From Amoebophrya sp. A120 (taxonomy: Eukaryota > Protista > Dinoflagellata), in contig CAJINV010000009.1 of assembly GCA_905178155.1 (NCBI GenBank), positions 434,001 through 498,000 of the forward strand: a stretch of 64,000 nucleotides of DNA, in the 5' to 3' direction. The notes under the pieces are model-generated. The model was given only the letters and a program-made list of their open reading frames with translations, did no database searches and had not been told where the DNA came from. Of the stretch, positions 871 to 23,459 are shown in pieces; position 1 is the stretch's first letter; each line of letters begins with the position of its first letter. The position numbers and the translations under genes are program-made.

Positions 871-3800
871 ATGCAGCTGCGGCATCCGCCGAACATTCAG
901 TCGGTGACCTGCCATCGGCTATGCAACCGAAAGAAGCTCATATTGGTAGGCATATTCGTGGCCCTATACGCGGTATGCATCCAATGGTCTTTTATGACAC
1001 TGGGGGAGCCACGCGAATGGGCACTGGCGGAGCAGAGACGAATCTTGAGGAAGAAGGCACAGGATGCCAAAGACAAAGGTACACTTCTAGACGATCAATG
1101 TCAAAAGACCAGCAAATGCGGAAAGTGTGCCTGTAATTCCAATGTCAAAAGTAGACCAAGTGAAAGAAGATGAAGCAAGTTCAAAAACAAGTTGTAACAT
1201 AAGCACGATATTTTTATCCACATCACATCACAACAGGCATTATCGTTGGTGAAGATACGCAAGGGAGGAAAGGGAAGAAGAACGAGCTGAAAATTAACGA
1301 GGACGAGCTTCCGTCAGAATATCTCCCCAATGCGTTTTGCTGCCTCTTCATCTTTCTCACTTTCGGCTTTAACATTCTCGTCTTCCTGCTCTGCAAATGG
1401 TCTCTGCGTGTGAAAACCGCGCTGTTCTATGAGGCGAGCGACCAGATCGACGAAAACGCATTTTTGCTCGTTCTGCCGCTGAAGCAGAAGGGCAAACCGG
1501 AGCTCGCGAACGTGCAGGAACCGAATTCCAACACGAACTACACCTTCGAATTCCAGCACATCAAATACGAAATTTACGACCCCGCTGACGAAGACAACAT
1601 CAATGACGAAAACAACAGTAAACTGGTCGGGGACGGCGACTTCGCTTGCAAGCTCGTGCAGTCCTACGACGTGGGGCACGACAAGCAGTTTTACAAAGCT
1701 GCCCACGGGCTGCAGACGGAGGAGGAACTCGAGAAAAACTTGGAACTCTACGGGTCCAACGTGTTCGAGCTCCCGTACCCAACCTTCCTGCAGCTGTTCC
1801 AGGCACAGCTGCAGTCACCGATCGTCTGTTTTCAGCTGATGGCGGCCTTTCTCTGGGCGATGGACACGTACTGGAAATACACCATGTTCACCCTGATGAC
1901 CATCCTCGGGTTCGAGGCTTCCACCGCCTTCCAGCGTCTGAAGTCCATCTCGCAGCTTCGCGGTATGTCCGCAAGGCCCTACGACGTGTGGGTGTACCGA
2001 AGGAATCGCTGGGTCGGCGGCGTGAACATTACGGAGCTGCTCCCCGGTGACGTGTTGTCCCTGACGCCCAACCTTTTGTCCGTGAAGGACGTGGACCGGA
2101 AGCAGAACCTGAAGCAGAGCCAAGAGCTGAAAGACGCGTCCGAACTCGCGGTCGAGAAAAAGCAGCAGCAACCCGCCAGGACGAACACCACGTCCGAGAT
2201 CACCGTGCCCTGCGATTGCGTTATCATCAAGGGCTCCGCCGTGGTGAACGAAGCCAGTCTGACGGGCGAGTCCGTGCCGCAGATGAAGGACGAACTGCCG
2301 CCGACGGTGGAGGATATTCAGGAGCAGTTCGAGATGCACGGCGCGGACAAGGTGCACACACTGTATTCCGGTACGACGTTGATCCAAGCGACAAACAGCA
2401 GCAATGCCGACGTCGTGAAGAAGGACGCCCACGACATGTATTCGGACATCAACGCCCCGCCAGACCACGGCATCGTCTGCTACGTTCTCCGGACGGGGTT
2501 CAGCTCCTCCCAGGGCGAACTCATGCGCATGATCGAATTCTCGCAGGAAAACGTCGCGGGCGACAAGAAAGAAACGGCGCTCCAGTTGCTATTTCTGTTC
2601 TGCTTCGCCTGCGTCGCCAGCGCATACGTGCTGAAAAAGGTATTACAAGCATGTTTTTTGTAGATGATGATGTGTGAAGTCAACATGTGCAAGTCAGTGT
2701 TTGCTCAAGAGCAGCCTCACGAACGTCTTGCTCTGCTTCGCGAGCAGTTTTGCATTCATAGTGACACGACAGTTAGATGACCTGCAGTCCATCCAAACAC
2801 ACGACCCGGGCCCAGTTGTAAAGTACACCAATCTCAACAGAAGATGATTGTCTTGACTCGCACCAATATAACAGGGCCTCGAAGACCCGGAGCGCCCTAC
2901 CTACAAAGTCCTGCTCCGGTGCGTGCTGATCATCACGCAAGTCGTCCCGGCGTCATTGCCGATGCAAATGGCCTTTGCCGTCCACACCGCGCTCATGAGC
3001 CTGATGAAGAAAGGGATCTTCTGCACCGAGCCCTTCCGGGTTCCGGAAGCGGGAAAAACGGAGTACTGCTTCTTTGATAAAACCGGAACCTTGACCAGCG
3101 ACCACATGTTGGGCACGGGGTTGGTGATCCCAACCAACAGCAAGGACGCGCCGAGTGGAGCAGACGCGGACAAGATCCTCGCGCACCCATTGGACGCGCC
3201 GGCGGAGTATAAGAAACACGTGAAGGCGATGAAGGACCACGAGAACGCACCGGCCGCGTTCGTGCTCGGGGGTTGCACGGCCCTGATCGAAGTCCAGAAC
3301 AAGATGTGCGGGGACCCGATCGAGATCGCAGCGTTGAAGGGCATCGAATGGAGCTACTGCAGCGAGTCGTCCACTGCCCATCCGGGAACGTACCTGCAGA
3401 AGGAGCGCGCACTGAAGCAGGCAAAAGAGGTGGTGGAGAAGGAACAGGACCCAACAAAGAAGAAAGAATTGAAGAAGGATTGCGACGACTTGGAAAAGTC
3501 CTACGAACAGGAGAAGCAAAAGTCGAAACTCGCAGCCATTCAGGTGGTCCAGCGTCACCACTTCGCGTCCAGTCTCCAGCGCATGTCAACCGTGTGTAAG
3601 GTGACGGCGGATACCAAATCGGCGCAGGGGAAACAGATGCTCAGTAGTGGCATCTATGCGTTTGTGAAGGGCTCGCCGGAGATGATGCTCAAGTTGCTGG
3701 ATAAAAAGCTGTATGGTTTGAACGGGAAAAACGACGGTAGTTCTGCTTTCGAGAAAAACTACCTCGCGGCCTACCGCAATCTCGCCGAACAGGGGCACCG

Positions 3801-6800
3801 TGTGCTTGCGTTGGGTTACAAGAGATTGTCGCAAGATCCGAACCAGTCCAAGAAATTCGAGAAAACAACCCGACAGCAAGTTGAGGCAGATCTGATTTTT
3901 GCGGGATTCTGTAGCTTCAAGTGCGAAACTCGGAGGGATTCCAAGCTGGTGATCCAAAGTCTCAGCGCCTCGTCGCACACCTGCATCATGTTGACCGGTG
4001 ACGCAGCCCTGACCGCATACTCAGTAGCCAAGGAAGTCGCGATTGCAAAGCATGCAAGTATTTTTTCTGTTTGCTAAAACTCTTGCAAGGCATAAACATG
4101 GCTATCCCGCCTAATTGCACTTATTCACCTGTGCCGAATTTTGTATATTGTGAACTGAAAAATGGATTTCGAATTTCAGCTGCTAACTCAGGCGACGGAC
4201 TTTTTCAATTCCGAGGACAAGTTACATCAGACTATTACCGTTTCACACGACAGGTTCTAAGGCCCTGATTCTTTCAGAGGACGGAGCCAAGTGGCAACCG
4301 GCTATTTCGAATCCCACCAAGGAGCAGCAAGAGGATGGAAAGGAAGGTAGCTCCTCGAGTAGTTCTTCAAAACCACAAAAGGATATCGCGTTCACGGACC
4401 CAGAAGAGCTGGCTGAGCTTCACTCGAAAAACCACGACTTGGTACTCACCGGAAAGGCGCTCCAGAGCGCAATCGAGAAGTACGGAGACGCCATGTGGGA
4501 CAACTTGCGCCACGTTTGTGTCTTCGCGCGGTTGAGTCCACAGCAGAAAGAGGATATCATCCGCTCGATAGGCGGACATCATTACGACGAACCTGGGAGG
4601 GAAGGTAAATGTCTTCTGCTCTTCATGCTACAGCTGGAGCATATTCTTGCCTACACCAACATATGATAGTCATGTCGAATACGAATGTTACATGTTGGAG
4701 TTGCCGAAGATCATGTTGCAACTGGACGCGCGCGACTTCTATGGCGGCGGCATGTTCTTGTGCAAGTGTTGATAATGCCATGCCTGGCTACCTGATCTTT
4801 CGACGTTTCTACTCCTATTCACAATATTTCACAGCCCGCGCTAAGAAGGAAGTGCCGCACCATACGTTGATGTGCGGTGACGGTGGCAACGACGTCGGCG
4901 CCTTGAAACAAGCCGACGTAGGTGTCGCGCTCCTGTCCGGTTTCGGAAATGCGAACGTCGATGTGAAAAAGAAAAAGCAGGCGGCGCCAGACGACTTCTT
5001 CAGTAATCTATTCGGGTCACAGGAAGACGAAGTAGACGAAGAGGCGAAGCAGCTGGCACTGCAAGGAAAAACCGCAGAGGATGAGCTGGCGAGGCTTCGG
5101 GACGAGGAAGACAAAAAAAACGCGACGATGAGGTCGAAGATGCAGGAGGACTTCAAACGTATGTTCTGTTTGTTGATGGTTTTTTTAATGCGTGCTCCAC
5201 CGAAAAATACGTTAGATCGGCTACGCTGTATTCAGTTGACAGTGCTGTCTGTTTGTCCAAAATTGACCTGATCAGAAATTATTCGAAATGCTGTTCGAAC
5301 GTCCCTCTGATCTTCTTGTGAATGATGACACGAAGTATTTTGTCACTACCGCGCCTACCGCACCTTGTGTGTGGGCATGGGCGAGACACTTCTTCATGGG
5401 TAATTTGCGTCTGACGAAATTATACCAAGCTACTTCGCGAAATGATAATGATAATGTCGATGGTCGTGCTGGGGATCACAAAAAATATGTGAATTCCGGG
5501 TCAGGTAGGATCACTCAAATTTTGTTCTTCCGAAGCAAGAAAAATGTACGTCGTCGGTCCGAAGATCCGAAGTGAAGTGTTACTCTGTAAAATTCCGGGC
5601 CATTCGCATTCCAGGTAAGCAAATGGGTATGTACGGGCGCCAGCAGAAATACGTGGAGGAGGAAATGAACCGACGGAAGCAGGCCGGCCTGGACACCGGC
5701 CTGCAAGCACACATGCAAGTGATGAAGGACGTGATGGCGCGGATGCAAAGAGAAATCGAGCACGAAAAGCAGCAAATGCAGAAAACCTCGGTGAATGCCA
5801 TGTCCGGGATGGACAAGTGGACCGAAGCCATGGAACAGGCGGACGAGCAGGTGGCGGTAAAACTGGGCGACGCCTCCATGGCGGCGCCGTTCACCTCCCG
5901 AACCCCCTCCATCCAAGCAGTGGTGGACATCATCCGCCAGGGTCGGTGTACGCTGCTCTCGGCGGTGCAGCAAATGCAAATTATGATGCTGGACTCCATG
6001 ATTTCCGCCTACTCCCTGTCCGTCATGTCCGCGGACGGCACGCGGCCGAGCGAGCAGCAGATGATGGCGTCGGGGACTCTGCTTTCCGTCGCGGCGATCG
6101 CTTTCAATTTCGCGAAACCGCTCGACCGCATGCACCCGGTTCGACCCCTCCGTTCGGTCTTCCACCCGGCGCTGTTTTTCAGTCTGCTGGGCCAGCTCGC
6201 GATCCACCTGGTCTGCATGGTGTACGTGATGAATTTGGCGAAGGAAGCGATGGGCGAGGAAGAGCTGCAGGCGGTGCTGAAATTCGAGAAGGAGCGAAAC
6301 GACCACATCGACGCCATGGAGGAAGAAGACATGAACGACGTGTGGTGGTTCACGAAAGTGCCCTTCAAACCGAACCTGCTGAACACCATGGTGTGGCTCG
6401 TGGAGGTCTCGCAGCAAATCTCGGTCCTCTTCGTCAACTACAAGGGCAGACCGTGGATGCGGGGCATGCTGGAAAACCAAGCGCTCTTCTTGAGCTTATT
6501 TGGCTGCATGGCGCTCGTCTGGGTCTGCGCTACCAACGTCGTGCCACTGTATATAAAGTTTTTTTCATCTTTGCCTTTGCATTTGGATTTGCTTTTTCCC
6601 TTAGGATCTGAATCTTTGCTGTACAAAAAGATTGCATCTGTAGTTTACTTAGTATGTCTTCCCGCCGCGGCTGCCATCCGCATCCCATTCACAAAACCCG
6701 CGAAGTTCAAGAAAAGTGCCTTATCATGATGACACACCTCTTTGGTCCGTGTTTCTGATTCAGCTTCGGCTGATGCGGAGAACGTGAGCTAATTGTTTCA

Positions 6801-7668
6801 AGACGGGTCTGATCGGAGATGGGGAAAGTGCATTTTGATAGAGCTCGTTCTCGTGCAGTTCGCAAAGAACATTTTATGCGGTTCGTTGGGCAAAAACTCG
6901 CTTTTCTCTGATAGCGTGCGTTTTTAATCAACGCAACCTAAAAAAAAACGAACACCGAGATTAATCCCAGAAGTGCGCTGCCCTATCGTGTCTTCTGTTT
7001 CATGACTCAGTGACATGCAAAATCGACTTTTGTCACATCTTCGAAGCATGTAGTGCCGCTCGAGCTATGTCAATTTCAAATGATGAGACGTCTCATTGGT
7101 CCGTGTTTCTGATCACTTGCGATGAGAACACGAGCTTTTTGTTTCAAGACGGGTCTGATTTTTTTGCTCTCACTTCCACGAGCTTGTCACGACCTGAAAA
7201 AATTTAAAGCCTTCTGCAAGGAACTCCCTCTCATGGTCAATCTAGTTTCCAATGATCAACAGGAACAGACAAATACCATACATTAACAGCGTAAACGACA
7301 CCCTGAAGCTGGTCGAGATTCCGGCGGACCTGCGCTTTTCCATGATGTCCATGCTCTTCCTGTCGTTAGGCGGCGCCTTTGTTTGGGACCGGTTGATGCA
7401 CGCCATTTTTGCACCGCAAATTTTCCAAGTGATGTGGGAAAACGTGGTGACCACAACGTGGAAGGATCTCTACCCAGTGGCCAAAACTGTGGGTATGGTG
7501 CTCGGCGGCTTGCTGGTGCTCGGCACTGGCAACATCCTCACGCTCGGTGGCTTTTATTGGCTTTACCGCCAGCACAAGGCTTCTCAAAATGCCGCTGCAG
7601 CGGGAACAACCACTGGAAGCGGGAGCGCCCCGGCTCCAGCTCCTGCTGCAGGAGCGGTAAAAAAGTGA
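871..7668 (+). CDS. P5A-type P-type ATPase (ATP13A1/Spf1-like), 7 exons: join(871..1078,1237..2639,2875..4057,4254..4604,4835..5158,5615..6548,7290..7668)
   Basis: Motifs LTGES, VPASLP (PPELP equivalent), DKTGTLT phosphorylation site, KGSPE, MLTGD, MCGDGGNDVGALK and P5A-typical KLGDASMAAPFTS and IRQGRCTL. All six introns are GT-AG and rejoin in frame. Confidence 0.92.
5318..5418 (+). ncRNA. Intronic C/D-box snoRNA, U16/snR87-like
   Basis: Box C ATGATGA 5322-5328, box D CTGA 5411-5414. Guide TGGGTAATTTGCG (5397-5409) is antisense to conserved 18S CGCAAAUUACCCA; second antisense tract TTGTCACTACC (5340-5350) matches 18S GGUAGUGACAA. Lies in ATPase intron 5159-5614. Confidence 0.75.
6722..6815 (+). 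ncRNA. Intronic C/D-box snoRNA, U18-type D' guide plus U21-type D guide, copy 1
   Basis: Box C ATGATGA 6726-6732; TTGGTCCGTGTTT then D' CTGA 6755-6758; TGTTTCAAGACGGGT then D CTGA 6809-6812. Both guides are antisense to LSU rRNA ACCCGUCUUGAAACACGGACCAA. Lies in ATPase intron 6549-7289. Confidence 0.85.
7077..7161 (+). ncRNA. Intronic C/D-box snoRNA, U18/U21-type, copy 2
   Basis: Box C ATGATGA 7080-7086, D' CTGA 7109-7112, C'-like GCGATGA near 7119, D CTGA 7155-7158. Guides identical to copy 1 while spacers have diverged. Confidence 0.85.
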
Positions 7669-8403
7669 TGCCGCTTTCCGTTGCCGGTAGGCGTTTCCTT
7701 CGACACACGACCCGATAAGCGATTCGTAGCATCAAAGTAGCGCCAACGCGTCGGTTTTTTTCTCTTGCCCCCCAGTCCCGGTTTGTGATTGCTCACATGC
7801 ATGTGGGGAGGAGTGGCGTATTACATACAAGAGTAAACTCCTGAACTACATTATTTGTCGTCCCAAGAGCAGTGCGCAATTGCGATTGCCTTTCGTCAAC
7901 GAAATGCGCTTGAGTTAAAAACTTTCTGTCTGAACGAAATTACAATTAGCGAGCGACAATATCCCAGTAAAAAGTATCACATCTTCATCATAATCTTCAC
8001 CTATGCAGACGCGTTTCTACAAAGCTCGTTCTTTACCCTCCTGGAGGCCGTCGTTCGCGTTTTCAGCAAAGATCTGACTGCTCAATCGCACACAGCGGCC
8101 TAAAGCCAATTGTATGTGTTCAATTATGGTTGGTCGGAGGCGAGAATGAGAGAATGAGAGCTGATGAAGCAGAAGAGATTTATGAACAGCTTTTTTGGAC
8201 GCATTTTGAATTAACGGAAGAAGTTGACCTTCGATCGCATTCAGAAACCCTTCTTCAGAAGATCCTGCCTTTGATGAAGTCACAGATCCCGATATGCTTC
8301 TGCTTATTGAAGATTCCCCGCATTGTTTCCTTGCGCTAGCCGGTTTATCCTTCCACTTTCCAAGAAATTGAGATTCGGACAAACTCAACCGTCGAAAATC
8401 AAA

Positions 8404-11256
8404 ATGGAGTCGTCATCCGTGAGGCCCCCACCTCCATCGCCCTCTGCCAGAAATGGAGGCGGTCAGGTGGATAAGGTGAAGAAGCACTGCATCATTCTTG
8501 CTGCTGGCATAGCAAGTCCACCCATCGCACCCTACACACAACAGATGCCAAAATGCTTCCTGCCTATTGCTGGGGAGCCCATCATTAACCACATTCTCCG
8601 CATGTTCGTGAACCAAGGCATCAAGCACTTCACTATCGTTATCGGCGCGCACGCCAACTACTTCAGCCCGGAGGTGCGCCAGGAACTCATGCATTTGGTG
8701 GGAAGCACCGCTTCAAAATCGGCAGCAGATGCTTCAGTGTCGGAAGTGGATACGGAGCAAGACGAGACGCCGTCCAGTCGCGGGGGGAGCGAGATGCAGA
8801 AGAGAAATTCAGCAGGTCTGAGGTCCGCCTCTTTGCTGGAGAAAAATTCATGTTCGCTGTTGTTCGTCGAGAACAATCTTTTCTGGAACAACGGGCCCGC
8901 GGATTCGCTTCGTCTTGGATACGAATCTTTGATGCGGAAGGAAAAGGAGAAGCCTACTCCTGCCGCCGGCCATTTGGTCTACGTGTGCTATGGGGACACC
9001 GTTTTCACGGACGTGGCGTTGCAGAAGCTGGTTGCTTTCCCGGCGCCGAATGCTTTGTTGATCGACAGGTCCATAACGATTGGCGGCGGGGCAGTGGAGT
9101 CTCCAGGGCTGCCGGGAAACAATGGTTCTTCTCCACTCTCCGTGCAGCAACCGAGCTTCAGCTCGTCGCGAGCACAGATGCATCTGCGCGGCGCGAAGTC
9201 GCGAGAAACCGGGCTGCAGGAATTGGAATTGTGCTCGGTGACGCCCTTTCCGAAACACAACAGCTGGAATCTGGTGGATCAGATTGGGAAGAACTTGATT
9301 CAGCGTGGTATGACGGCCTTCGGTGAATTCACCGGATTGTTTCGGGCTACAAACGAAACCATGGATCAGGCATTCGGTGTGGGCGACAACTCTGAGGCAC
9401 CCGCGGCCGCGGCTTCCTGTTTTTACGTTCCAGATGTGCTTCGGAAATGCATTCTCGAGTACCAAACTGAATTTTTCGCCGTGCCGATTTTCGGAAACAG
9501 GCGGGAAATCCACTCCAGCCAGGATTTGCTGCAAGCAAACTCGGAGCTCTGTTATCTGTCGGACCAGGTCGGCCGTAAGGAGTACATCAAGGCCATCGGT
9601 TCGCGCTTGCTTGCGGAGGCCAACGACCTGAAGCGCCCGGTGGAGATCATTGCGCAGGAGTTGAACTTTCCCGACACACTGCTGGACGACTTGCTGAACG
9701 GAAACGTCGAACTGGAGACCGCCCAGGAGATTTTGCGGAAGGTGAACACAAACTACCCCGTCTCGCTGAATGCGCTGTGGGTTGAGCCGGACGACTGCTT
9801 CAACGGTATCCGGATCTGCCGCGCCAAAGAGTCGGAGGTGAGTAAGCGGATTCTGCACCGCATAAACGGTAGAACTAACAAAAAAACGCCGTACTACGAG
9901 TACCGGGATTGCGCCATGAGCCGCTTGGGTCCCTTTCGCCCGGAGTGGATCAAGGAGCTGCGTATCGTGTCGGATTCGGACCCGGAAAATCCGGAAGTCG
10001 CGTTCAACAACGGGCACCTGCTGTTCCAGTCCACGTTCTTCATCGGTCCGGTGAACTTCTACTACTCCGAGCCGGACGGCACGAAACGGTGCGTGGAAAT
10101 GAACACCGGCGACAGTAACTGGATCGCGCCTTTCGTACCACACAGCTTCACCAGTCGGGATGGCTCGAAATTTGCCTGCATCATCGCGTGTACGTATGGC
10201 AGCGGGATCGTCGGTTGTCTGCAGTCCATCGGAGGGCTGCACCACAGCGACGAGCAGGGAGAAACACAAACGACGTCGTCGACTTTCGGCGGAACTAATG
10301 AACTTCTGAACAAAACACACCTCAACACGTACAGTGGAGACCTGCGCGACCCGTTGTCGCACTTTCAGGCGAATTTGCTGCGCTACGCCCAGAACGATGG
10401 GTTTCCGAATCTGAAAGAATTTGCGGACCGGTTGATGATGCAGAGCGACGAAAAAGGAGAAGGTACAGAACCGGAGCTTTCACAAACCGGCGCCAATAAA
10501 GAATCCGGGGCGCCGGCAAACTTCACCTCAGCCATCGCGGAGCAAACGCGCAGACTGTGCGCAGAGGTGCTCGGCGTTAAGCGGTCTGAGTTGGCATCAA
10601 AGTTCGACCCTGAATCCAGAACTACGACGGCAGCTACAGCAGGGACACGCCTTCCGACTATCGAGGAGTGCCGACTTCTCGCGAAGGAATTGCACTGCCT
10701 ACCAGAGGACCTGTACGTAGAAAGAGGCCTGGAAGAGCCAGTCGTGGTGTCGTTTCGCGGAAAGGGCGCGCTTCGAACTTGGAGCCGGACCCTGAAGCTT
10801 GAACGTCTAGCGAGCAGCGAGCACCACAGCATGATCAAAAGTTTCGATGTCGAGATTTGTGACGGAGACAGCGTTTTGGCAGCGGAATCCTCTTGCGAGG
10901 AGGACTGGATTCAAATTGCGGTTCACAATTTTGGGTACAACTACAGCGAGAAAGCGTTTTTGTTGGAAACTTTCAGGGAGAAAACAGTGATCAATCCCGG
11001 TGACTCGTTCTACGTGCAGCCACACATACGACACCGTTTCCAGTTGCTGCACGCACAAACCCCAAGGACCACTGTTGAAACGATGTTGAACGGAGACCAA
11101 TCTACTGGGAACGGTGCTTCTCCTCCTGCCAGCGCTCGCATGTACCTGGTGCGAATCCCCGGGGCGTTGACCCGGGAGCTGATGCGGGAAGTAGCGCTCT
11201 GCGATCAACGCGGGAAGGCTCGGATTGGAAATGAAAGTCGACGGTGGTACAACTGA
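8404..11256 (+). CDS. mpnS: Fusion protein: N-terminal NTP-transferase (LicC/PntC-like cytidylyltransferase) plus C-terminal methylphosphonate synthase (MPnS/HEPD family)
   Basis: Single intronless ORF, first ATG 8404. N-terminal: IILAAG..PKCFLPIAGEPIINH, YGD, GEFTGL. C-terminal from about 9580: ANDLKRP, PYYEYRDCAMSRLGPFRPEWI, NNGHLLFQ, VNFYY, MNTGDSNWIAPFVPHSF, LPTIEECRLLAKEL, INPGDSFYVQP, terminal RWY; colinear with Nitrosopumilus maritimus MPnS as recalled. Confidence 0.9.
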   Translation: MESSSVRPPPPSPSARNGGGQVDKVKKHCIILAAGIASPPIAPYTQQMPKCFLPIAGEPIINHILRMFVNQGIKHFTIVIGAHANYFSPEVRQELMHLVGSTASKSAADASVSEVDTEQDETPSSRGGSEMQKRNSAGLRSASLLEKNSCSLLFVENNLFWNNGPADSLRLGYESLMRKEKEKPTPAAGHLVYVCYGDTVFTDVALQKLVAFPAPNALLIDRSITIGGGAVESPGLPGNNGSSPLSVQQPSFSSSRAQMHLRGAKSRETGLQELELCSVTPFPKHNSWNLVDQIGKNLIQRGMTAFGEFTGLFRATNETMDQAFGVGDNSEAPAAAASCFYVPDVLRKCILEYQTEFFAVPIFGNRREIHSSQDLLQANSELCYLSDQVGRKEYIKAIGSRLLAEANDLKRPVEIIAQELNFPDTLLDDLLNGNVELETAQEILRKVNTNYPVSLNALWVEPDDCFNGIRICRAKESEVSKRILHRINGRTNKKTPYYEYRDCAMSRLGPFRPEWIKELRIVSDSDPENPEVAFNNGHLLFQSTFFIGPVNFYYSEPDGTKRCVEMNTGDSNWIAPFVPHSFTSRDGSKFACIIACTYGSGIVGCLQSIGGLHHSDEQGETQTTSSTFGGTNELLNKTHLNTYSGDLRDPLSHFQANLLRYAQNDGFPNLKEFADRLMMQSDEKGEGTEPELSQTGANKESGAPANFTSAIAEQTRRLCAEVLGVKRSELASKFDPESRTTTAATAGTRLPTIEECRLLAKELHCLPEDLYVERGLEEPVVVSFRGKGALRTWSRTLKLERLASSEHHSMIKSFDVEICDGDSVLAAESSCEEDWIQIAVHNFGYNYSEKAFLLETFREKTVINPGDSFYVQPHIRHRFQLLHAQTPRTTVETMLNGDQSTGNGASPPASARMYLVRIPGALTRELMREVALCDQRGKARIGNESRRWYN

Positions 11257-12002
11257 GGTTTACTAGAGTGGGAGCTTTCTTAGAAGTTAGTTCGAATTCG
11301 CTTTGTTGACGCGTCGTTTCTTCATTCGACGACTCATAAAGCAAAAACACACAGAACATCGAGTACAGGACGTTAAACGTTTACAGAATATGAATAGATG
11401 ACTGGTGGACGCCGTTCCTTCTCCGTAAAGCGAACTGAAAGTCCGTCATCATCTTGCATTGTTTATTTGCAATTGCATGATGAAGTTTGCCGTACTAGAA
11501 AAGTGCAGCGACACAAACGCTCTCAAACATAAAGGCGCAGTCAGCACATTCAGCGAGTGATTATCACCAGTGCGTGGTGTACGTTTGTTTCGTTATTTGC
11601 GATGTTCTACAGTATTCGCTGCGGCTCATCAGAGACAGATCATGAAAATGAATTTGGACGGTATTTCGAGTGAACTATCGTGTTGCAGTTGCTCTTGTTG
11701 AAACTTGCAAAAAATCATAGCAAACACTGTGGTCGTTCACGCTCAGCACAACAGTTACAGTTGCGTTTCTGCTGCTTGAAAATTCTGCTATCCTTTTTAC
11801 GCTGAAACCAAAAATTCATGGGTGCGTCTGTGCTGCTTGTGCTGCATGTGTATTGAACGAGAGCGAAGGAGAGCTCTACCACTAATCGCCCCCGCCGGTT
11901 TCGCACTCACTTTTCCGCCGTGGCTACAAATTGTCGAACCGAAGTTGACTCAGACTCAATCAGGACATCGCGATCGCAAACTGCTTCCGCTACAACAAAG
12001 CC

Positions 12003-14079
12003 ATGTTGTCAGCTGCGATGCACGAGAACATCCCACACCGCAAATGCAGTGCTTGTTGGAGGTTCTTTCCGAGAAGTCGCACGTGCTCACTTTTACTGTT
12101 ACTTCTCAACTTCTACACTGCCCTTCACTTTCAACGGTGCCAGGCCACGCACATCAACGAAACTGTGGTGACCTCTGCGCTGCCGCGCCGGCCCCTGCGC
12201 GTCGCCATGATCCCGTTCACCTGGATGCCCTGGGCCAAGTACGACGCCGAAAAAGGCGTTTACACGGAGGGTTTTCTACCGGACTTTTGGCGGGCACTGT
12301 CCTCCCTGCCCTGCGACATCCGGCCGAAGGGGGTCCCCTGCTTCGACATTCAATTCGTCACCATTCCCAACACCCCCGAGTATTTCGCCGACCCCAGTGC
12401 GTTCACGCGGCAGATGGTGCTCAGCAACCAGGTGGACGTCGGGTTTGACTCGAATGACCACTTTTACGCAGACCAGCTGGCGTACACGCAACCCATGGTG
12501 CTCAACTGGACTGTGGGGATTCTGAAGAAAAAGAAAGTTTCCGTCGGGCTCTGGCAGATTTTCGCGCCCTTCACCACGGAGCTCTGGGTCGCGCTCCTCT
12601 TGTCCATTTTGTTCGGAGCTTTCGTACTGCAACTCCTCTCTTTGATCTCCTCGAGTACGCAAGTGTCGGTGAAAAATTTCGCCGAGTCTCTGTATCACAC
12701 GACGGCGGCACTGCTGGGTGGTGACGAGTACGATTTATACCATGTGAGTCCTCTGGGTCGGCTGTACCGTACGGGTTTGCTGTTTCTGATCCTCATCACG
12801 TCCGCCACCTACACCGCGAATCTGGCCGCGTTTCTGACGAAACCCGCGATAAGCGTCCAGGGCCCGAAAACTTTGACCGATCTGAAGGACGCGACGGCCT
12901 GCGCCCGGCACCGCGCAATCACGAAGCTCGGAGATTTCGTCGGCGACTTGAAATTTCCCCCCGTTGGCATGGCCGTCACGGACACCGTTAAGTGGGCGCA
13001 AGACATGCTGGAGTCCGGGCAGTGCGATGTGATTGTCGAAAATGATGCGAACGCGCGCACGGAAATGCTGGAGAACTGCGAAAGGTTCCATGTCGAGGAG
13101 AATCTGCAATTTTTGCCGTCCTACACCTACAACATCGTGCGAAAGGAGGACACGCAGCTGGCCACCTGGATCTCCGAAGCGACGATAGTGTTGATGGGAG
13201 TATTTCTATTTATGCTTAGCTTCTTTTGAATTTTCGGAGGATACACATAGAAGTGTAGGGTGATGGAGCACTCTTGAGTGTAAGTAGTGTCGTGTGAAGA
13301 TTGATATCATGAATTTGTTTTGTATTGTTCAGCATCGATCTGGGAAAAATCGCATATTAATGTCTTCAAAACTATCCCAAACAACACTCTCCTTGCAGCA
13401 CCCGCTGTATGCGCAGATTCTGCAGTCGAACATGAAACTTGGCCGCACTTGCGACGACCAGATGGAAGTTGACGACACAACACCGATCAACGTAGAGCAG
13501 ATGGGCGGCATGTTCGTGATTTTCGGCGCCACCGGTGTGGTCGCGGTTTTGGTGACCATAGCAGACCGGTGCCATCGGAGAAAACCTCGCAAGCCCGAAG
13601 ATTTCGAAGAAGACGTGCGTACCAGCTTGGAAAAGTTGGAGGAAAGCATGGCGGCATTGCAGGAAAGAGTTGCGAAAATTGGTTCGGCCGGAGCTGCTGT
13701 GAGGACACTACCATCTGCTGACGGTGACGCTAGTGCGGCCATTGCGATGCAGGACCAGGATCAAGATGAGGATAACTACGGGCGATCTAGCTCGAAGAAC
13801 GTCGTTTATCCCCCCGGAGGCCCCCTCGCTGTCGGGCAATTACAGCCTTCACGAAGTCCTACAACAACGACCGGTGCAGGTTCCGCATCGGCTTCGCAGG
13901 TTGCGCCGCCGCCATTTGGGGCGATGGCACTCGCACCTCCGCGAGGCTATGTTGGGGTAGATGACGGCGAGGTCTTAGACCCCGATCAGCATTTGGACGT
14001 CGAGGTGCTTCCGACTTCTGCAATGCCGAGGGAAACTCCAAAACGCGTTCGCGCAGAAAAAGAGTGGCTGAATTGGTGA
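12003..14079 (+). CDS. Ionotropic glutamate receptor-like (GLR) channel, join(12003..13199,13399..14079)
   Basis: IFAPFTTELWVAL (pre-M1/M1), re-entrant segment SLYHTTAALLGG, gating motif TYTANLAAFLT (SYTANLAAF), M4 after PINVEQMGGMF. GT-AG phase-0 intron 13200-13398. Start codon uncertain. Confidence 0.85.
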
Positions 14080-15815
14080 GCAGTGCTGATGCTATTCTGC
14101 AGGTTGCTCGACAACACAACATTACCCGGCTCATTTTTTACTTGCAAGGTTTTTGCGTACAATTTGTTTCCGTTTCTCTAGGTTGTCTAGTTTCGCACCG
14201 AATACTTTGCTCAATGGGAAGTACTTACATAGCAGCGCGTTGTCAGTGCAGCGATAACGATAGGAAAAAGTTACATCGACGGGCAACAAGAACAACCAAC
14301 CTGATCAACTAGTCTGTGTCGGCTCTGTCAGACCATGTGTTTGGATTCTGAATATGCGAAGAAACAGAAATGATCGTAGAGGCATCGAAGTAGAACTAGA
14401 TCTACAAACTGGAATTCTGAGAGACCACTGCAGACGACAGAGACGTGCAGCAAGTGAATGCATTGCGAGCGATTTCATGATTGAAAAGGAGAGAGGTCGA
14501 GAGCGGAATCGACTTAGTATGAGATGTGAGCTCGAGTTCGAGTTGTTTTCGCGATAGACAACGAGGAGGGTGAGCTTTTGCTTTTCTGAAGCAGTACTGA
14601 GCGAACAAAATTAAGTAGAGTGTGTTAATATAGTGAGTGACAATACGCATTTGTGTCTGAATATGATTCGTGCAGCTCTAGCAACATCGCAAATCTTTTT
14701 CTTTCGTCGTGGTCCCCATTCTCATTGATAATTCGTTTTCGACGATGAAAAGAGGTCGATTGCCCACCGAACACCTTACGTCGACGTGCATGTCTTCACA
14801 CACCTCATGGCGACTGGTGTTGCCGCCTAGATTTCTCTCAGATCATCTTCAAACGCAGAAACTGTAGGAAGAGAAAAAACTAGTCTGTGTAGCTAGACTT
14901 ACGTAGATGTACGTACGACGAGCTGCTCCACTGCTCGAACTCTAAACTAACTACGCAGTGCCTTATTCTTTCAGCTGCACCAAATGTACCTCACTGATCT
15001 GTTCGAGCTTTTCAAATGCAATAAAACGAAATTCAAAATGAGGAAGAAGCCTGGTGCGCTAGCACTTGCACTGATGTAATTCGAACGTATTTATTTCTAC
15101 TCCCGAGCCCCGGCACAAAAACAAAAGAAGGCCAGAGTTGTGGAAAGTAGGCACACCAACAAGGTGACACTAACAAGGTGCAGCGCTGCTGGACAGAAAT
15201 TCAGCTTCGTCTTGTTGCGGCAGCCCTGATAGTCGCGACGCATACCCGCCGGAGTCATCGTGTCGCGGAACATTGGAAGTTTTTCACCCCCGCGGAGCGC
15301 GTACTAGAAGAAAGTATTCTTCAGTGCTGTACAGCAGAATCGGAATCGGCTACAGACACGGTTGCACCTAAATTTTGAGAAAAACCAGTGCTGGTACACA
15401 TTGCTAATCGACGTGAATCGGCCGTTCGTCGCAATAAAGAAGCGTCGACCTCCTTGTTATCACCTGGTGGAAAAGAAATACAAATAGTCGTTGACTACAG
15501 CATCAGCAGCTGTCGACGGGAAGAAGTTGGAGAAGTTCTCACGACAACACGTCAAGAGCGTCATCGTAGCGGTAGGGACAATCGAGGCCGTGGTTGTACT
15601 GCTAACGGTCAGTAGCTCCACTTCATTGCGGAACCGCGGGACAACGCGGTGGTTTCATCACTTCTTTCATTCCACAACTTGAACTTCCTCGACGTGGCAT
15701 CGCGAAGGAGCGGAGCAAAAGAAGTTTGCGAGTTGAAGAAAAAATAAAAAGGCAGCGTAGTGAAGGGGAACAAGTAGAGCAACCGTACTGGTAGGAAGTT
15801 CTACTGCTGACAAAG

Positions 15816-18800
15816 ATGTCGAAGCCAGCAGAGAATGGTGGAGGTGCGGATGGGGACAGGAGGCTGTCGAGCGGGACCATGGAGCACCTGAAAGCCATCG
15901 AGCAACTGCAAAAAGCAACGCTGTCAGAGTCAAAGCCTGCGAAGAAAAAGCCAAAGGACAAACATAAGGTACAATTTGTTGTAGTGCAAGTGTGAATCGT
16001 TGGAGTCAGAGCAAAACTCTAACCTGCTACAAAAATCGAAATTACTTACTTAACGTGTTTGTTCTTCATCGCACGAACACGACCATGTACAACCAGAATC
16101 ACGTAGGAAAGCCCACACTGGCTACTTTCTATCTAAAACTTTGAACCGCACAGGCACCCCACGTGCCAAAGACCGACATCGACAAGAGGCACAAGATCAT
16201 TCTGTTTGGCAGGATATACAAGGGTAGCGAGCCAGAAGAGGAGAAGTTGTACAGTTTCACGCATCAACGGGCAGATGGTGTTATCACCGAAGGTTACATT
16301 CCGGTGGGTTTTCTGTCCATGTTGCCCGTGGAGGACGAGCACCTGTAAAGCGATTTTTTGTTTGAAAAGCTCTAGAGTTTGATGAAGTATCGTGCTGTAT
16401 ACGTTGTCTATATCCTCCCTCTTGTACTATGTTTCTTTTCGACGTGGAGGTCTGTGCTGAGTGGCTGAACTCTTAATGCGATCATCGCAACGACAACTCC
16501 GCTGAGGTTCTTCGCCGTCCGCAAGACACCGATGGGCCCGGAGTTTCAGGTAGCGCACAAAACGGAGAAGAATGTCGTCTGCGACTGGGATCTGAACCCA
16601 GATGCAATGTGGGGAAACGTTGTCACAAATTTCGACAGAAGAGATTTGTTTTCCGAGAAAACTATGAACTACCTTGACGCTGACCCGTTCGTGCTTTTCG
16701 GCATTGACGATCTCACCACACAAAAAGCGCTGAGAAAACTCGACAAGTTTCCGGTCTTGCTGTGCCGAGGCGTCAAGCCAGATTCGGAGGAGTGGTATGA
16801 TCTGTATGCAGATGTGAAGCGAATTAATGGAGGTCTTCGCGTTCTGCAAATCAGAACCGATAATGTTTGTTTCTCTGCTACTTCGACTTCCCGTGCGTGA
16901 TTTTCTTGAAATACAAAAAGGTTTGCTTACCTCGAGCTTGATAGTGAACACGACTCCCAACTCGGCTGGATTGTGCAAGCGTTGGCTGAAATGGAGCTCC
17001 CAGCGCCGTGGACGAGTTACAAGGGGATTGGGTCCATCGTGTGCTTTCTGAACCACCAGACGGGGAGAAGTACCTGGAAGCACCCGTTTTACGACTACTT
17101 CGCACAACTCAAAACTTTCGCTTTGACCGCCAGCCCGGATCACGTGAAGCAGGTACTGATAGTGTACGCAGATAAATGATCATGATGCTACTAACTTGCT
17201 TATCAGCATCACAGCGGACGCGAAATTCCAGTTGCTGGAACTCGAATTAATCTATTTCTACTTACACCTGGTGGCACTGCCTCGAATTAATCTATTTCTA
17301 CTTACACGTTTACGCAGCCGCAAGCGCAAGGATCGCACGTGCAGCAATAGTAAAGTGGCAAAACATGATCACAGACTGCTATGAATATCGAATTTCTCCA
17401 TAAATTTACAGTGCCGGCTTAACCGCTTGATTTGGAGCTACGAGACGCAAGGCCCATCTGGGAGTCTGCAGGAACCGCTGGTGTCACCCGAATATGTCGA
17501 GCATCTGGCAGAAATTATGGACTACGACCTTGCTGCAGAGCCAGCTATCGTGCGAGATTTGAAAACGTACTTACAGACTTTATTACCATGCGCCGCATGC
17601 TCGTTTTTTTCCTCTGTCTAACTTGATTCATCTACTATCGTGAGTGGTAAATTTTTACAGTTGAGTTAGTCCTTCGTTATCCATTGTCACCGGGACTAAG
17701 TGGCCAGTTGTTCGATGTAAATGATCAGGTACATCAAGATCTTCGCCCACTCTTACCGGACCCAGGAAACCGTGCAGATAGAGGACGTGTTGTCACTGCA
17801 AGAGGCCGTGGAGCTGAATAGAGGTAGGTCGGACATGGTGACCGATACCTGGAAAAGCCTGAAAAACCTGCCCACCAAGGAAGACTTCAAGACCGCAAAA
17901 AGGCTATTTGAGGAAGAAAATGAAATCATTCAGAAATTAGCCAGTGGTGAGAGTTCTTTCGATTATTTTTTCCGGAATGTCGTGCGTTGCAGCTGCAGGC
18001 GCACGACCACCGGCCGGAATGCAACCTTTTACTCTTTCTAACTCTACTCAGTTACATTTTCTGTTGTTGTATTCTGTCTTCGCATGTGCATGAAAAAGAA
18101 ATCGCACAACTTGAACTTATCGATCAGGCGAAGTGATGTGTGTCGAGTGCGATAACGTTGCCTTGTCCTACTGCACGATGTTCGAGGACTACATGTGCCT
18201 TGCCTGCTTCGCTCGCCTGCACCAGAAAGGCCACCGGAGGGACGCGAAGGCCTACAAGCTGGAAGTGTGTCAACTCTGCAAGAGTAAAGCAGCCAAACTA
18301 CAATGCGGATACACCGGAAAGCTGTTCTGCCTCGAGTATTGTTGTGAAATGTGTTGGCGACGTGACACCGATGCTGCTTTTATTTTTGCAGCAGTTGTAC
18401 TCACCTACGAGGCACGACTATCCTACTTTAAGATACAGCTTCACTGCGGAAAGGCTCGCCGGACATAAGTATTTACAACAAAATAAAACAGGTGTTTCGC
18501 CATGAAGCACATCAAGGAACTGCCACCGCACGCACGGGAGATAGCCCCAACGAAAATCCACTATCACAAGATGGCACCACCCAAGAATCCGGACGAGGAT
18601 GCGGACGACGCCGAGTCGGACGTGGAGTCCGAGGTCGACTCTGAGCTCGGAATTCTCGGAGCACAGTGGGCACCGTTCTTCGACGCTAAAGGTAAAGAGA
18701 GTGTAAGCGATGTTCATGTTGTCTTTGTCAGCTCACAATACTACATGAATTTTCTCTGTAGTTGTTGTAAGTAAGATGAGTAGGTGCACCAACCTTGTTA

Positions 18801-19232: not shown

Positions 19233-20929
19233 GGGAAGTGGTTTCAGGTGCTGCTTGTAAGGTTCTAGGTTTTGCAGGACGGATGATCCTGACCTTATAC
19301 GCTCTCCGGTCTCAATTAGTGAGATTCTTGCTGCTTAACAAAATGCTCAAACGTACTCAGACTCAGACAGGAGTCCTGAAAATTTTAATATTGCTTGATA
19401 TATGCTTTTCCTTTTACAATTCAGATTCACAGATTCTTGCTGACATTGACGCAAATGCAGAAGAAGTATGGTAGATAGAATTCAACAAAGCAATGCGAAT
19501 ACGAACTCAACACATTGTCAAAAAATGCGTGCTAAAGTAGTTTCCAACTTTGTTTTCCAAATGCCAATCGCACCAACAAGAAAAAATGAAGGTGCGAGCA
19601 ATGAAGTGATTGCTAAATTTGTAAAATAATGTGAACTTTTACGTCGATTCTTCTAAGGTAAGTCAAACTCTTGCCAGAATTGTATCAACAATTTTCAATG
19701 TACCCCCTGTACAAAGTGCGAACTTTGTTGCCCTCCTTGAAAATGTTATGTATTCATCAACTTTTACAGTGGTTTCCGAAGATTGTCGGCTTTGCTGAGG
19801 GAAACGCAGAACATTAGCAGAACGACTCTAATATACCTACGCTGCAACTTCTGCGATTTTTTTGCGACAAGAATCTTTAGGCGTGGTTGGTGATGTTGGT
19901 CGCCACGGGAAAGCAGAGAAGCTAAGTAGAGTATTTTCGCCCGACCTGGGTGTTCCTCTATCAATCTTCGACGTCGAGGCACAGCCTCACTCCAAGGCTA
20001 GTTGGTATCGGCATGTCACGCATGAATAAGAAGCGCAAGGATGATATAGAGGAACCTTCAGACAAAAATACTACAAGGCCGCAGCTTATGTCGCGCAGTG
20101 GGAGGGTGAACGAGTTGACAGGGGGGAAAGAAAAACGCCAGAGGGTGGGCAAGGGAAAAAAATTTTGATGCAGGGCGGGGCCAAGCCCCTGCGCCGCTTC
20201 GTGTTGAAAGAACGAAGGCGGAGCGCCATGGCGCCCGTGGTTCCCGACGTTGTGCGAGCGCGAGGACCCCGCCCGTATTGGGCCCGTGTTTCTGAGGCGG
20301 CAAGCCTTAGGCCCAACAACGCAAAGCGCGGCAGCGGGCGGGCGCCTCTGGGCGGGGGAAGGTAGGAAGCAGGAGAACAGCCCGCGCCATGCGCGGCGCT
20401 GGCGCGTCACGCCCCGCCCGCGCGTCTGCTTTGTGGCCCGTCTGTGGCGCCTGCCGGTGTGCCCTGCTCCTGCGCGCCTTGCTGCTCCCCCGCCCTTCTC
20501 CCGCGCGCGGCCTCGGCTGCAGGGCAGGGGCTCGCTGGGGCCCCTGCCGCGCGCTTCTTGGGTAGAGTCAGTGGGGACGGGCGCCAGGGCAGGGCGTTCA
20601 CTGCTTTCCAGGCGCAGGGGCCCACCACCCTCCCCCCGCACCCCCGGGAAACAACGGCGCCCCGCGCGCTAGCTTGCGTGCAATCTGTTCCGCCCCCGCC
20701 TCCCCTCGCGCGCAGCCAGCCAGCGAGCGAGCGAGCCTCCATCCAAGAGAGGCTGGCTGGCTGGCAGAGAGGCGGACGGTGGCGCACTCTTCCTGTCCCC
20801 TCGCGAACAGAGGGGGGGCTCCGGGGGAGGGTGGTGGGCAGCTGCGCGCCTGCGGGCCTGGTCCTGGGGCATGGTTGCCCCCGTGGGCCGATGCTTCCCG
20901 GCCCCCCCGCGCCTCGCGCCCGCCTTCCC

Positions 20930-22078
20930 ACCCCGTGCTTCCCGCTTTCCCCTTGCTTCCCGCTTTCCCCGTGTTTCCCGCTTTCCCCGTGCTTCCCGCT
21001 TTCCCCGTGCTTCCCGCTTTCCCCGTGCTTCCCGCTTTCCCCGTGCTTCCCGCTTTCCCCGTGCTTCCTGCTTTCCCCGTGCCCCCCGTCTTCCCCGTGC
21101 TTCCCGCTTTCCCCGAGCTTCCCGCTTTCCCCGTGCTTCCCGCTTTCCCCGTGCTTCCCGCTTTCCCCGTGCTTCCCACTTTCCCCGTGCTTCCCGCCTT
21201 CCCCGTGCTCCCCGCTTTCCCCGTGTTTCCCGCCTTCCCCGTGTTTCCCGGCCGCCTTCCCCGTGTTTCCCGCGCGCCTTCCCCGTGCTTCCCGCGCGCC
21301 TTCCCCATGCCTGCCGAGCCGCTTCCCCCGTGCTTCCCGCTTTCCCCGTGTATCCCGCTTTCCCCGTGTATCCCGCTTTTCCCGTGCTTCCCGTACGTTT
21401 TCCCCGTGCGTCCCGCTTTCCCCGTGCTTCCCGACCCGTTTTCCCCGTGCTTCCCGACCCGTTTCCCCCGTGCTTTCCGCCTTCCCCGTGCTTCCCGCAC
21501 GCCTTCCCCGTGTTCCCCGGCCCGCTTTCCCCGTGCTTCCCGCTTTCCCCGTGCCCCCCGCTCTCCCCGTGCTTCCCGCTTTCCCCGTGCTTCCCGCTTT
21601 CCCCGGGCGCCCCGCTTTCCCTGGGCTTCCCGCTTTCCCCGTGCTTCCCGCTTTCCCCATGCTTTCCGCTTTCCCGTGCCCCCCACCCTCCCCGTGCCCC
21701 CCGCCTTCCCCGTGCTTCCCAGCACCCTCCCCGTGCTTCCCGCTTTCCCCGTGCGCCCCGTTTTTCCCGTGCGCCCCGTTTTCCCCGTGCTTTCCGCTTT
21801 CCCCGTGCTTCCCGCTTTCCCCGTGCTTCCCGCTTTCCCCGTGCTTCCCGTTTTCCCCGTGCTTCCCACCTTCCCCGTGCTTCCCGCTTGCCCCGTGCTT
21901 CCCGCTTTCCCCGTGCTTCCCGTCTTCCCCGTGCCTCCCAGCCGCCCGCTTTCCCCGTGCTTTCCGCTTTCCCCGTGCTCCCCGCTTTCCCCGCGCTTCC
22001 CGCTTTCCCCGCGCTTCCCGCCTTCCCCGTGCTTCCCGTTTTCCCCGTGTTTCCCGCTCTCCCCGTGCCCCCCGCCTT
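20930..22078. repeat. 18-bp minisatellite (CCCCGTGCTTCCCGCTTT)n
   Basis: Dozens of tandem degenerate copies, almost no A on the + strand; source of the spurious long repetitive ORFs. Confidence 0.95.
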
Positions 22079-22119
22079 CAAAGCCGCAAAAACCAACGGG
22101 GGAGCCGGTTTGTTTGGAA

Positions 22120-23310
22120 GGTTGTTGCGAAATATTTCCCGTCGGAATATTTTTCGAGGGCTGCAAAACGTTTCGACTTGCAAAGTATTTCGACTTGCGA
22201 AATTTTTTGGCTTGCAAAATAATACTTCGACTCCCAAAATTTTTGGGCTTGCAAAATATTTCGACTTGCAAAATTTTTCGGCCCGAAAATTTTTTGGCTT
22301 GCAAAATATTGGCCCGTGGAAAATTTTTCGAGTTGGGAAATATTTTGCGCTGCGAAATATTTTGCGTCGCAAAGTACTTCGCTCTGCGAAACGTTTCCCG
22401 TGTACTTCGCTCTGCGAAACGTTTCCCGTTGGCCGTTCCCCGTTGGCCGTTTCCCGTTGGCCGTTTCCCGTTGGCCGTTTCCCGTTGGCCGTTTCCCGTC
22501 GGCCGTTTCCCGTTGGCCGTTTCCCGTTGGCCGTTTCCCGCTGGCCGCTTCCCGTTGGCCGTTTCCCGTTTGCCGTTTCCCGTTGGCCGCTTCCCGTTGG
22601 CCGCTTCCCGTTGGCCGTTTCCCGTTGGCCGTTTCCCGTCGGCCGTTTCCCGTCGGCCGTTTCCCGTCGGGCGCTTCCCGTCGGCCGTTTCCCGTTGGGC
22701 GTTTCCCGTTTGGCGTTGGGCGATTAGATATTTGGAGTTGCAAAATATTTCGGGTTGGGAAATATTTTGCGTTGCAAAATATTTGGAGTTGCGAAATATT
22801 TTGAGTCGCAAAACCTTTGCAGCTACAGAATATTGGGAGCTGCGAAATATTTTGCGAGTTGCGGCTTGGCCGCTGGTCGTTTGCGATTTGGCCATTAACC
22901 GCTTGCGACTTGGCCGTTTGCGATTTGGCCGCTGGCCGTTGGCCGTTTGCGATTTGGCCGTTGGCCGTTGGCCGTTTGCGATTTGGCCGCTGGCCGTTGG
23001 CCGTTGGCCGTTGGCCGTTGGCCGTTGGCCGTTGGCCGTTGGCCGTTGGCCGTTGGCCGTTTGCGATTTGGCCGTTTGCGATTTGGCCGTTTGCGATTTG
23101 GCCGTTTGCGATTTGGCCGTTTGCGATTTGGCCGCTGGCCGTTTGCGATTTGGCCGCTGGCCGTTTGCGATTTGGCCGGTGGCCGTTTGCGATTTGGCCG
23201 CGCCGTTGGCCGTTTGCGACTTGGCCGCTGGCCGTTTGCGACTTGGCCGCTGGCCGTTTGCGACTTGGTCGTTGCCCGTTGGCCGGTTGCCGTTGGCCGT
23301 TGGGCGGTGA
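22120..23310. repeat. Composite repeat array: CTTGCGAAATATTTT-like motif blocks alternating with 14-bp (GGCCGTTTCCCGTT)n, 7-bp (GGCCGTT)n and 15-bp (GGCCGTTTGCGATTT)n
   Basis: AT-richer motif at about 22120-22420 and 22725-22860; 14-mer at about 22420-22712; 7/15-mers at about 22865-23305. Confidence 0.9.
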
Positions 23311-23459
23311 GCGATTTCGCAAATCGCGACAGCTTTGGAAAGTTTGAAAATTGTCAAAAAAGTTTCGGCGTGGGCGATTTTCTTTCCCGTTGCAAAATTT
23401 TAACTTGCGCAGCTCAGCAATAGGAGTTATAAGACTTCGACGAGTGGGAGTGCCCATTT

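Follow-up and report, generated by a model that had tools for sequence, protein, structure and literature searches.

A transcribed Amoebophrya gene of the methylphosphonate synthase family with a fused, probably impaired nucleotidyltransferase domain

Methylphosphonate synthase (MPnS) of Nitrosopumilus converts 2-hydroxyethylphosphonate to methylphosphonate and bicarbonate (PMC12619172), and a Tyr-Gly pair is diagnostic of the related class II HEPD (PMC8976061). In the open literature searched, the makers of methylphosphonate found in print are bacterial and archaeal only. The nucleotidyltransferase PntC is characterised by the motif GXG(T/S)RX4-8PK, and its Arg15Ala, Lys25Ala and Lys153Ala variants each show less than 10% activity (Rice et al. 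2019, PMC6697681). In our study, a stretch of 64,000 nucleotides of the dinoflagellate Amoebophrya sp. A120 (assembly GCA_905178155.1, contig CAJINV010000009.1, positions 434,001 to 498,000, forward strand; hereafter the window) was found to carry an intronless gene in which a nucleotidyltransferase (NT) domain precedes an MPnS-family dioxygenase domain. By its sequence the gene belongs to the MPnS family; it is real, eukaryotic and transcribed, and the fusion is shared among dinoflagellates. At about even confidence, the gene is read here as a likely methylphosphonate synthase whose fused NT domain is probably impaired.

The reading frame is open over 950 codons and, as the first-pass annotation had claimed, it joins an NTP-transferase domain to a full MPnS/HEPD-family domain; both were matched when searches were run for each domain. 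The sequence search of the PDB (E <= 0.001) gave three matches, MPnS 6b9s (1.1e-57, both halves), class II HEPD 6b9r (1.1e-47) and HppE. In a gap-free alignment His538 (position 10015), Gln542 (10027), Phe552 (10057), Ile574 (10123) and His580 (10141) lie opposite H148, Q152, F162, I184 and H190 of 6b9s, so that the MPnS spacing proposed earlier for these five residues is exact in its coordinates and the 152/162/184 positions are occupied as expected. In class II HEPD 6b9r the third and fourth of these positions are occupied by Tyr and Gly, a motif which is not present in the window protein. His538, Gln542 and His580 are taken by us to be the 2-His-1-Gln iron triad, a role assigned from Born et al. 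2017, and mutagenesis in that work is said to lie behind the rule that Phe/Ile yields methylphosphonate. Lys410, Arg486 and Asn535 match K28, R102 and N145 of MPnS and presumably bind the phosphonate. The AlphaFold2 model (mean pLDDT 81.6) retrieved MPnS first and HEPD II next in the structure search with Foldseek (E 7e-41). Between the Amoebophrya-type copies the catalytic half is 84-87% identical, the NT domain 60-61% and the second cupin half 49-53%. The C-terminal domain is thus quite probably a methylphosphonate synthase by activity, as far as its residues predict.

For the N-terminal NT region alone the Pfam NTP_transf_3 score, 24.2 bits, did not reach the cut-off of 27. When 18 NT domains, that of the window among them, were combined in a profile, LicC (1e-27) and PntC (1e-23) were the top solved-structure matches, which places the domain among the homologues of these enzymes. 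Two features that define PntC and LicC are lost in the activating half of the Amoebophrya lineage. The motif GxG(T/S)Rx4-8PK is replaced by G35-I-A-S-P39, with the Arg absent and Lys50 retained, and in the acidic metal site Asp198 and Glu368 are retained while the last Asp of E-x-D, which we take to be a metal ligand, is His370. Pro39 and His370 occur together in all four Amoebophrya-type copies. A census of these motifs over 80 fused proteins in which they can be read showed Arg, Lys and Asp kept in 52 (prokaryote-type copies, Nephroselmis and five environmental eukaryote-clade copies), the combination Pro/Lys/His in the 4 Amoebophrya-type copies, Thr or Ser for Lys with Asn for Asp in 20 copies of core-dinoflagellate type, one change in 3 others, and 1 without assignment. 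Among the named dinoflagellate copies, all of those whose N-terminus can be read show a change in one or more of the tested catalytic residues. The first-pass annotation had described a bifunctional enzyme, and its MPnS-type sequence marks were borne out; activation with CMP on the same polypeptide is doubtful, because the Arg is replaced by Pro39 (PntC Arg15Ala being less than 10% active), the E-x-D Asp by His370, and the core dinoflagellates are without the catalytic Lys. The fused NT domain is probably impaired on this evidence, and it is still conserved and hence probably kept for something. The environmental eukaryotic copies with intact motifs (P0010, P0011, P0022, P0026, P0133; L084:44-2452) have Arg-rich N-terminal extensions that look mitochondrial-targeting-like by eye, unlike the Pro/Ser-rich N-terminus of the window protein.

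Contigs of the runs X3, X4 and X6, which belong to one study with two samples, are listed as guessed RNA and show the presence of a transcript and not its level, pass over GT..AG introns of the two adjoining genes and span this gene unbroken and mismatch-free (unspliced in 3/3 sets). The placement of the gene between two spliced eukaryotic genes, noticed at first pass, was thereby confirmed. Moreover, the 5' end of a neighbouring transcript carries nine untemplated bases where the genome has an AG, presumably the tail of the dinoflagellate spliced leader. The skipped introns and this untemplated end indicate that the contigs are RNA-derived, and therefore the gene is transcribed and intronless. 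The raw RNA runs X9, X10 and X11 of the same species label gave zero reads on any tested stretch and so have no bearing on expression. A scan of 162 loci for the spliced-leader pattern gave no match in any of the 162. The multi-intron gene at 14674-17947 shows a spliced-leader-like 5' end and a deep transcript contig in run X4.

Among 7996 scored candidates the homologue search, which was confined to a protein length of 522-1663 residues, found 117 matches. Among named organisms the closest relatives are proteins of Amoebophrya sp. AT5.2 and A25 (57% identity over residues 385-950), which points to a syndinian host of Amoebophrya type, and the named dinoflagellate carriers are Amoebophrya, Polykrikos kofoidii, Ansanella granifera, Symbiodinium sp. 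CCMP2456, Crypthecodinium cohnii, Cladocopium goreaui, Durusdinium trenchii and Effrenium voratum, the gene model of the last being joined to triose-phosphate isomerase. The green alga Nephroselmis pyriformis is also a carrier, and many further homologues are environmental sequences; one environmental copy whose motifs are intact is arranged tail to tail with a DENN-RUN gene, which indicates a eukaryotic host. The full NT-MPnS arrangement is present in Symbiodinium, Cladocopium, Durusdinium, Polykrikos, Ansanella, Crypthecodinium and Nephroselmis. The first-pass annotation had rightly seen a protist gene and had not noticed its wider spread across dinoflagellates. The pattern H/Q/F/I/H was present in 108 of the 117 matches, among them all eukaryote-clade copies, and in 122 of 132 when cluster members are included; the other nine have Tyr/Gly (5), Val/Met (3) or Phe/Val (1). 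At the two product-determining positions the three Val/Met sequences (P0046, P0052, P0054) agree with neither MPnS nor class II HEPD. Feature scores in an atlas search with the full protein were below 0.9, and its matches serve as leads only.

Phylogenies of each domain, midpoint-rooted and carrying branch support values only, grouped the eukaryotic copies. In the IQ-TREE analysis, run on 40 selected MPnS domains, one branch (100/99) held 12 rows of dinoflagellate and environmental eukaryotic origin together with one more row, with Nephroselmis outside; the FastTree of the MPnS part held 119 rows, P0015 and P0031 being excluded as the anchor motif was not found in them. In the FastTree of 99 NT domains, 19 eukaryote-type rows including Nephroselmis formed one branch (99) apart from the prokaryotic fusions, with long branches meeting inside it. 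These trees are most simply read as early inheritance in dinoflagellates. MPnS-family domains were also seen fused to iron alcohol dehydrogenase, TauD-type dioxygenase and an unrelated CTP_transf_like (PF01467) cytidylyltransferase (P0052, P0054, P0056, P0057, P0063, P0075, P0085, P0089, P0106-P0117), and such fusions echo the two transferase families fused to PEP mutase.

The prokaryotic context was counted in the best 80 of 114 confirmed loci from representative genomes, within the fetched flanks. PepM was found in 51 of these 80 loci, Ppd in 53, iron alcohol dehydrogenase in 64 and a TagF-type transferase family in 25. The NT-MPnS fusion is present in seven, six of them with pepM, ppd and reductase, and an NT ORF (open reading frame) lies directly upstream of mpnS in 32 of the 73 unfused loci. 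The fusions and the NT ORFs next to mpnS in phosphonate clusters indicate that the two domains are partners and that the fusion is not a eukaryotic invention; its earlier reading as a eukaryotic feature is therefore given up. Alphaproteobacterial transferase-mpnS-reductase modules (L014, L016, L021, L024, L025, L028, L034) were seen away from pepM/ppd, often adjoining sulfatase-family, APS kinase or sulfotransferase genes. The scan of contigs catalogued as viral (IMG/VR) gave two loci, L081 and L082, matching to the MPnS part only; each has a stand-alone MPnS-type gene with pepM and iron alcohol dehydrogenase, and one has ppd also.

According to the preferred reading, the two-domain gene would have come from a prokaryotic phosphonate cluster, where both genes are usually neighbours, and the fusion would have been in place before the split of syndinian and core dinoflagellates. 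The C-terminal domain is predicted to bind Fe(II) via His538, Gln542 and His580 and, with O2, to cleave 2-hydroxyethylphosphonate to methylphosphonate and bicarbonate as in Nitrosopumilus. Intact NT domains in prokaryotes, Nephroselmis and several uncultured eukaryotes may form CMP-methylphosphonate for surface polymers. In the named dinoflagellate copies, at least one catalytic residue is changed and the NT domain is hence probably a structural or nucleotide-binding module; the product would then be free methylphosphonate, or its activation would fall to another enzyme. The substrate may be supplied by the cell's own PepM, Ppd and reductase or by phosphonates from host or prey. On a wider scale, and with confidence somewhat short of even, it can be proposed that dinoflagellates (parasitic syndinians, bloom formers and coral Symbiodiniaceae) and some other marine protists make methylphosphonate through one early NT-MPnS fusion whose activating half was repeatedly disabled, the free or differently attached product leading to methane via C-P lyase bacteria.

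A number of points weigh against this reading, and the first of them concern the NT domain. Lys50, Asp198, Lys296 and Glu368 of its catalytic site are retained, His370 could still bind metal, and the conserved domain may be active. The enzyme would then be fully bifunctional, making methylphosphonate and activating it with CTP on the same chain for glycans or lipids, with the altered NT site as a working variant. This alternative, which we consider unlikely though deserving of attention, is favoured also by the identity of the NT domain between Amoebophrya-type copies, which is above that of the second cupin half, by its high modelling confidence and by its presence in all full-length named dinoflagellate copies, while the TagF-type transferase family of the prokaryotic loci fits ancestral activation and transfer. 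However, Pro39 and His370 are found here whereas a different catalytic residue, the Lys25 equivalent, is gone in the core dinoflagellates, and the loss of different residues on separate occasions is easier to reconcile with relaxed catalysis than with a single new mechanism.

The product and the substrate are the second matter. The eukaryotic clade is not nested with the assayed Nitrosopumilus enzyme, and the product call therefore hangs on two residues. There is no PepM, Ppd or reductase gene of the pathway within the window, and no named dinoflagellate was present among the best 120 of 379 and the best 120 of 8000 Ppd matches, which is not evidence of absence. Of the three pathway proteins, Ppd was the one searched for among eukaryotic proteins; the Ppd matches listed are from ciliates, molluscs and other eukaryotes, and an atlas search with a ciliate Ppd gave only clusters dominated by molluscs, euglenozoans or bacteria. 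The dioxygenase may be imagined to yield another product (hydroxymethylphosphonate or a mixture) or to use another phosphonate, for example in the processing of host or prey phosphonates. That class II HEPD is the second-best match, that Tyr/Gly-type sequences (P0058, P0085, P0107) are scattered among the Phe/Ile-type in the tree, which suggests easy switches, and that no dinoflagellate route to the substrate came up among those best Ppd matches are in agreement with such an enzyme. Against it stand Phe552 and Ile574, which are MPnS-type and fixed in every eukaryote-clade copy, and the retention of the gene in photosynthetic cultured lineages, and we regard it as improbable.

Two other points weigh on the same side. 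Transfer between eukaryotes may have occurred, as uncultured eukaryotes lie inside the clade. In cultured zooxanthellae one unidentified phosphonate peak, in itself a point in favour of the reading, made up 3-12% of the soluble P, but the authors stress the relative scarcity of phosphonates in these cells beside the coral host; the word axenic is absent from the main text of that article (Godinot et al. 2016, PMC4763230). This peak neither proves nor excludes the methylphosphonate reading.

That the enzyme acts on an analogue outside the phosphonates, for instance the sulfonate isethionate, is very improbable. It is suggested by several alphaproteobacterial loci of a neighbouring clade that have no PepM or Ppd within 8 kb and lie beside genes of the sulfatase, APS kinase or sulfotransferase type, but all five such genomes tested (5/5) hold both PepM and Ppd elsewhere, above cut-off, and the window protein retains all MPnS active-site positions. 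Lastly, a bacterial contaminant or chimeric join, for which the intronless gene, the same fusion in prokaryotes and a spanning DNA run X1 that is possibly the data behind the window assembly (and so attests internal consistency only) could be cited, is hardly credible in view of the single X1 contig that spans 5386-18000 at even depth with the spliced neighbours aboard, the orthologues of two further Amoebophrya gene sets (one placed on a scaffold of 973 kb) and of Cladocopium (on a scaffold of 1.1 Mb), and the separate clade of the eukaryotic copies. The genuine eukaryotic origin claimed at first pass is upheld by this contig together with the transcript contigs between spliced neighbours.

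No report of a eukaryotic MPnS or of an NT-MPnS fusion was found in the open full-text literature, represented mostly by titles and abstracts and with subscription papers largely outside it. The string 'eukaryot' is absent from the main text of Lockwood et al. 2022 (PMC9381506), PMC8942020, PMC12619172 and PMC12916788, and the available text of PMC3640398, PMC3209475 and PMC13608971 contains nothing on this gene. The database of Acker et al. (bioRxiv 2020.11.04.368217) included eukaryotic genomes and SAR11 was named as the main carrier, with mpnS in <1% of single-cell genomes at the surface; a frequency of <1.5% of surface communities is given by Lockwood et al. 2022 (PMC9381506). In public databases some eukaryotic copies, e.g. 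that of Symbiodinium sp. CCMP2456, already bear an automatic label of mpnS or methylphosphonate synthase. Where the methylphosphonate behind methane production in oxygenated seawater comes from is still an unanswered question, and the surveys consulted count prokaryotic mpnS. A conserved, transcribed MPnS-type gene across dinoflagellates provides an abundant and culturable eukaryotic candidate source, and dinoflagellate methylphosphonate, if real, would have been overlooked by prokaryote-limited surveys. Further, the fused NT domain has lost catalytic residues repeatedly, and its variants form a natural series in which to ask about the purpose of the activating step.

The features of the locus are collected in the table. 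Other parts of the window hold a GC-rich, strongly skewed repeat region (20598-27688), whose minus strand gives a Pfam collagen-repeat match that the repeats themselves may have produced; a 1445-aa reverse-transcriptase ORF following the repeat region (23351-27688), probably of a non-LTR retroelement; a pirin-family ORF (37542-38825); and, at 55490-57112, an ORF for a dual-specificity phosphatase that also shows weak similarity of the periplasmic-binding-protein type.

Table. Positions of the fused gene, its motifs and its neighbours (window numbering).
Feature	Position	Strand	Evidence
Intronless ORF, 950 aa: NT fold and MPnS-family dioxygenase	8404..11256	+	ORF, PDB and protein searches, unspliced transcript contigs
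LicC/PntC-type NT domain, about residues 26-384; low-confidence insertions at residues 106-146 and 228-260	8479..9555	+	
Altered GxG(T/S)R..PK motif, residues 35-50: second Gly to Ala37, Arg (PntC Arg15) to Pro39, Lys (PntC Lys25) is Lys50	8506..8553	+	
Asp198, retained	8995..8997	+	Opposite PntC Asp106 via profile
Lys296, retained	9289..9291	+	Opposite PntC Lys153 via profile
E-I-H in place of the E-x-D motif (LicC Glu216 region): Glu368 retained, Asp to His370	9505..9513	+	
Full-length MPnS-family domain, residues 388-950: helix-turn-helix, catalytic cupin, second helix-turn-helix, second cupin	9565..11253	+	Sequence search, model, TM-score by target 0.85 to 6b9s/6b9t
Lys410, Arg486, Asn535 (MPnS K28, R102, N145)	9631..10008	+	Same in 79/79 aligned sequences
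His538, Gln542, His580 (predicted iron ligands) and Phe552, Ile574 (MPnS-type positions)	10015..10143	+	
Span under unspliced transcript-type contigs (8264-11520, 8329-11533, 8284-11547)	8264..11547	+	Zero mismatches or gaps
Upstream neighbour: spliced P-type ATPase gene	1410..8045	+	Four GT..AG introns observed between 4057 and 7290
Downstream neighbour: ligand-gated ion channel gene	11780..14281	+	GT..AG intron 13200-13398
AG acceptor	14674..14675	+	Neighbouring transcript with 9-base untemplated 5' end there

In comparison with MPnS of Nitrosopumilus maritimus (EC 1.13.11.73; PDB 6B9S, 6B9T), the window protein has the same two-cupin architecture and fold (TM-score by target 0.85) and retains all of K28, R102, N145, H148, Q152, F162, I184 and H190. 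It differs in being eukaryotic, in standing behind an NT domain, in several low-complexity insertions, in having no adjoining pepM, ppd or reductase gene and in belonging to another branch of the family; it is known here from sequence, whereas the N. maritimus enzyme has been assayed. Class II HEPD (PDB 6B9R) shares the fold and the His/Gln/His triad but has Tyr/Gly in place of Phe552/Ile574. As for PntC (PDB 6PD1/6PD2) and LicC (PDB 1JYK), they are the best structural-database matches to the NT profile and the equivalents of Lys25, Asp106 and Lys153 are retained, whereas in the window protein Pro stands in the place of Arg15 and His in that of the last Asp of E-x-D. The fusions described for PntC are to PEP mutase or an aminotransferase, and none to MPnS is given in the part of the text consulted (PMC6697681). 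The NT-MPnS fusions of Chloroflexota, Melainabacteria and Planctomycetota, themselves known from sequence, have the same domain order and MPnS signature as the window protein; their NT motifs, in contrast, are intact, they lie mostly amid pepM, ppd and reductase genes (6/7), and their NT domains branch apart in the FastTree analysis.

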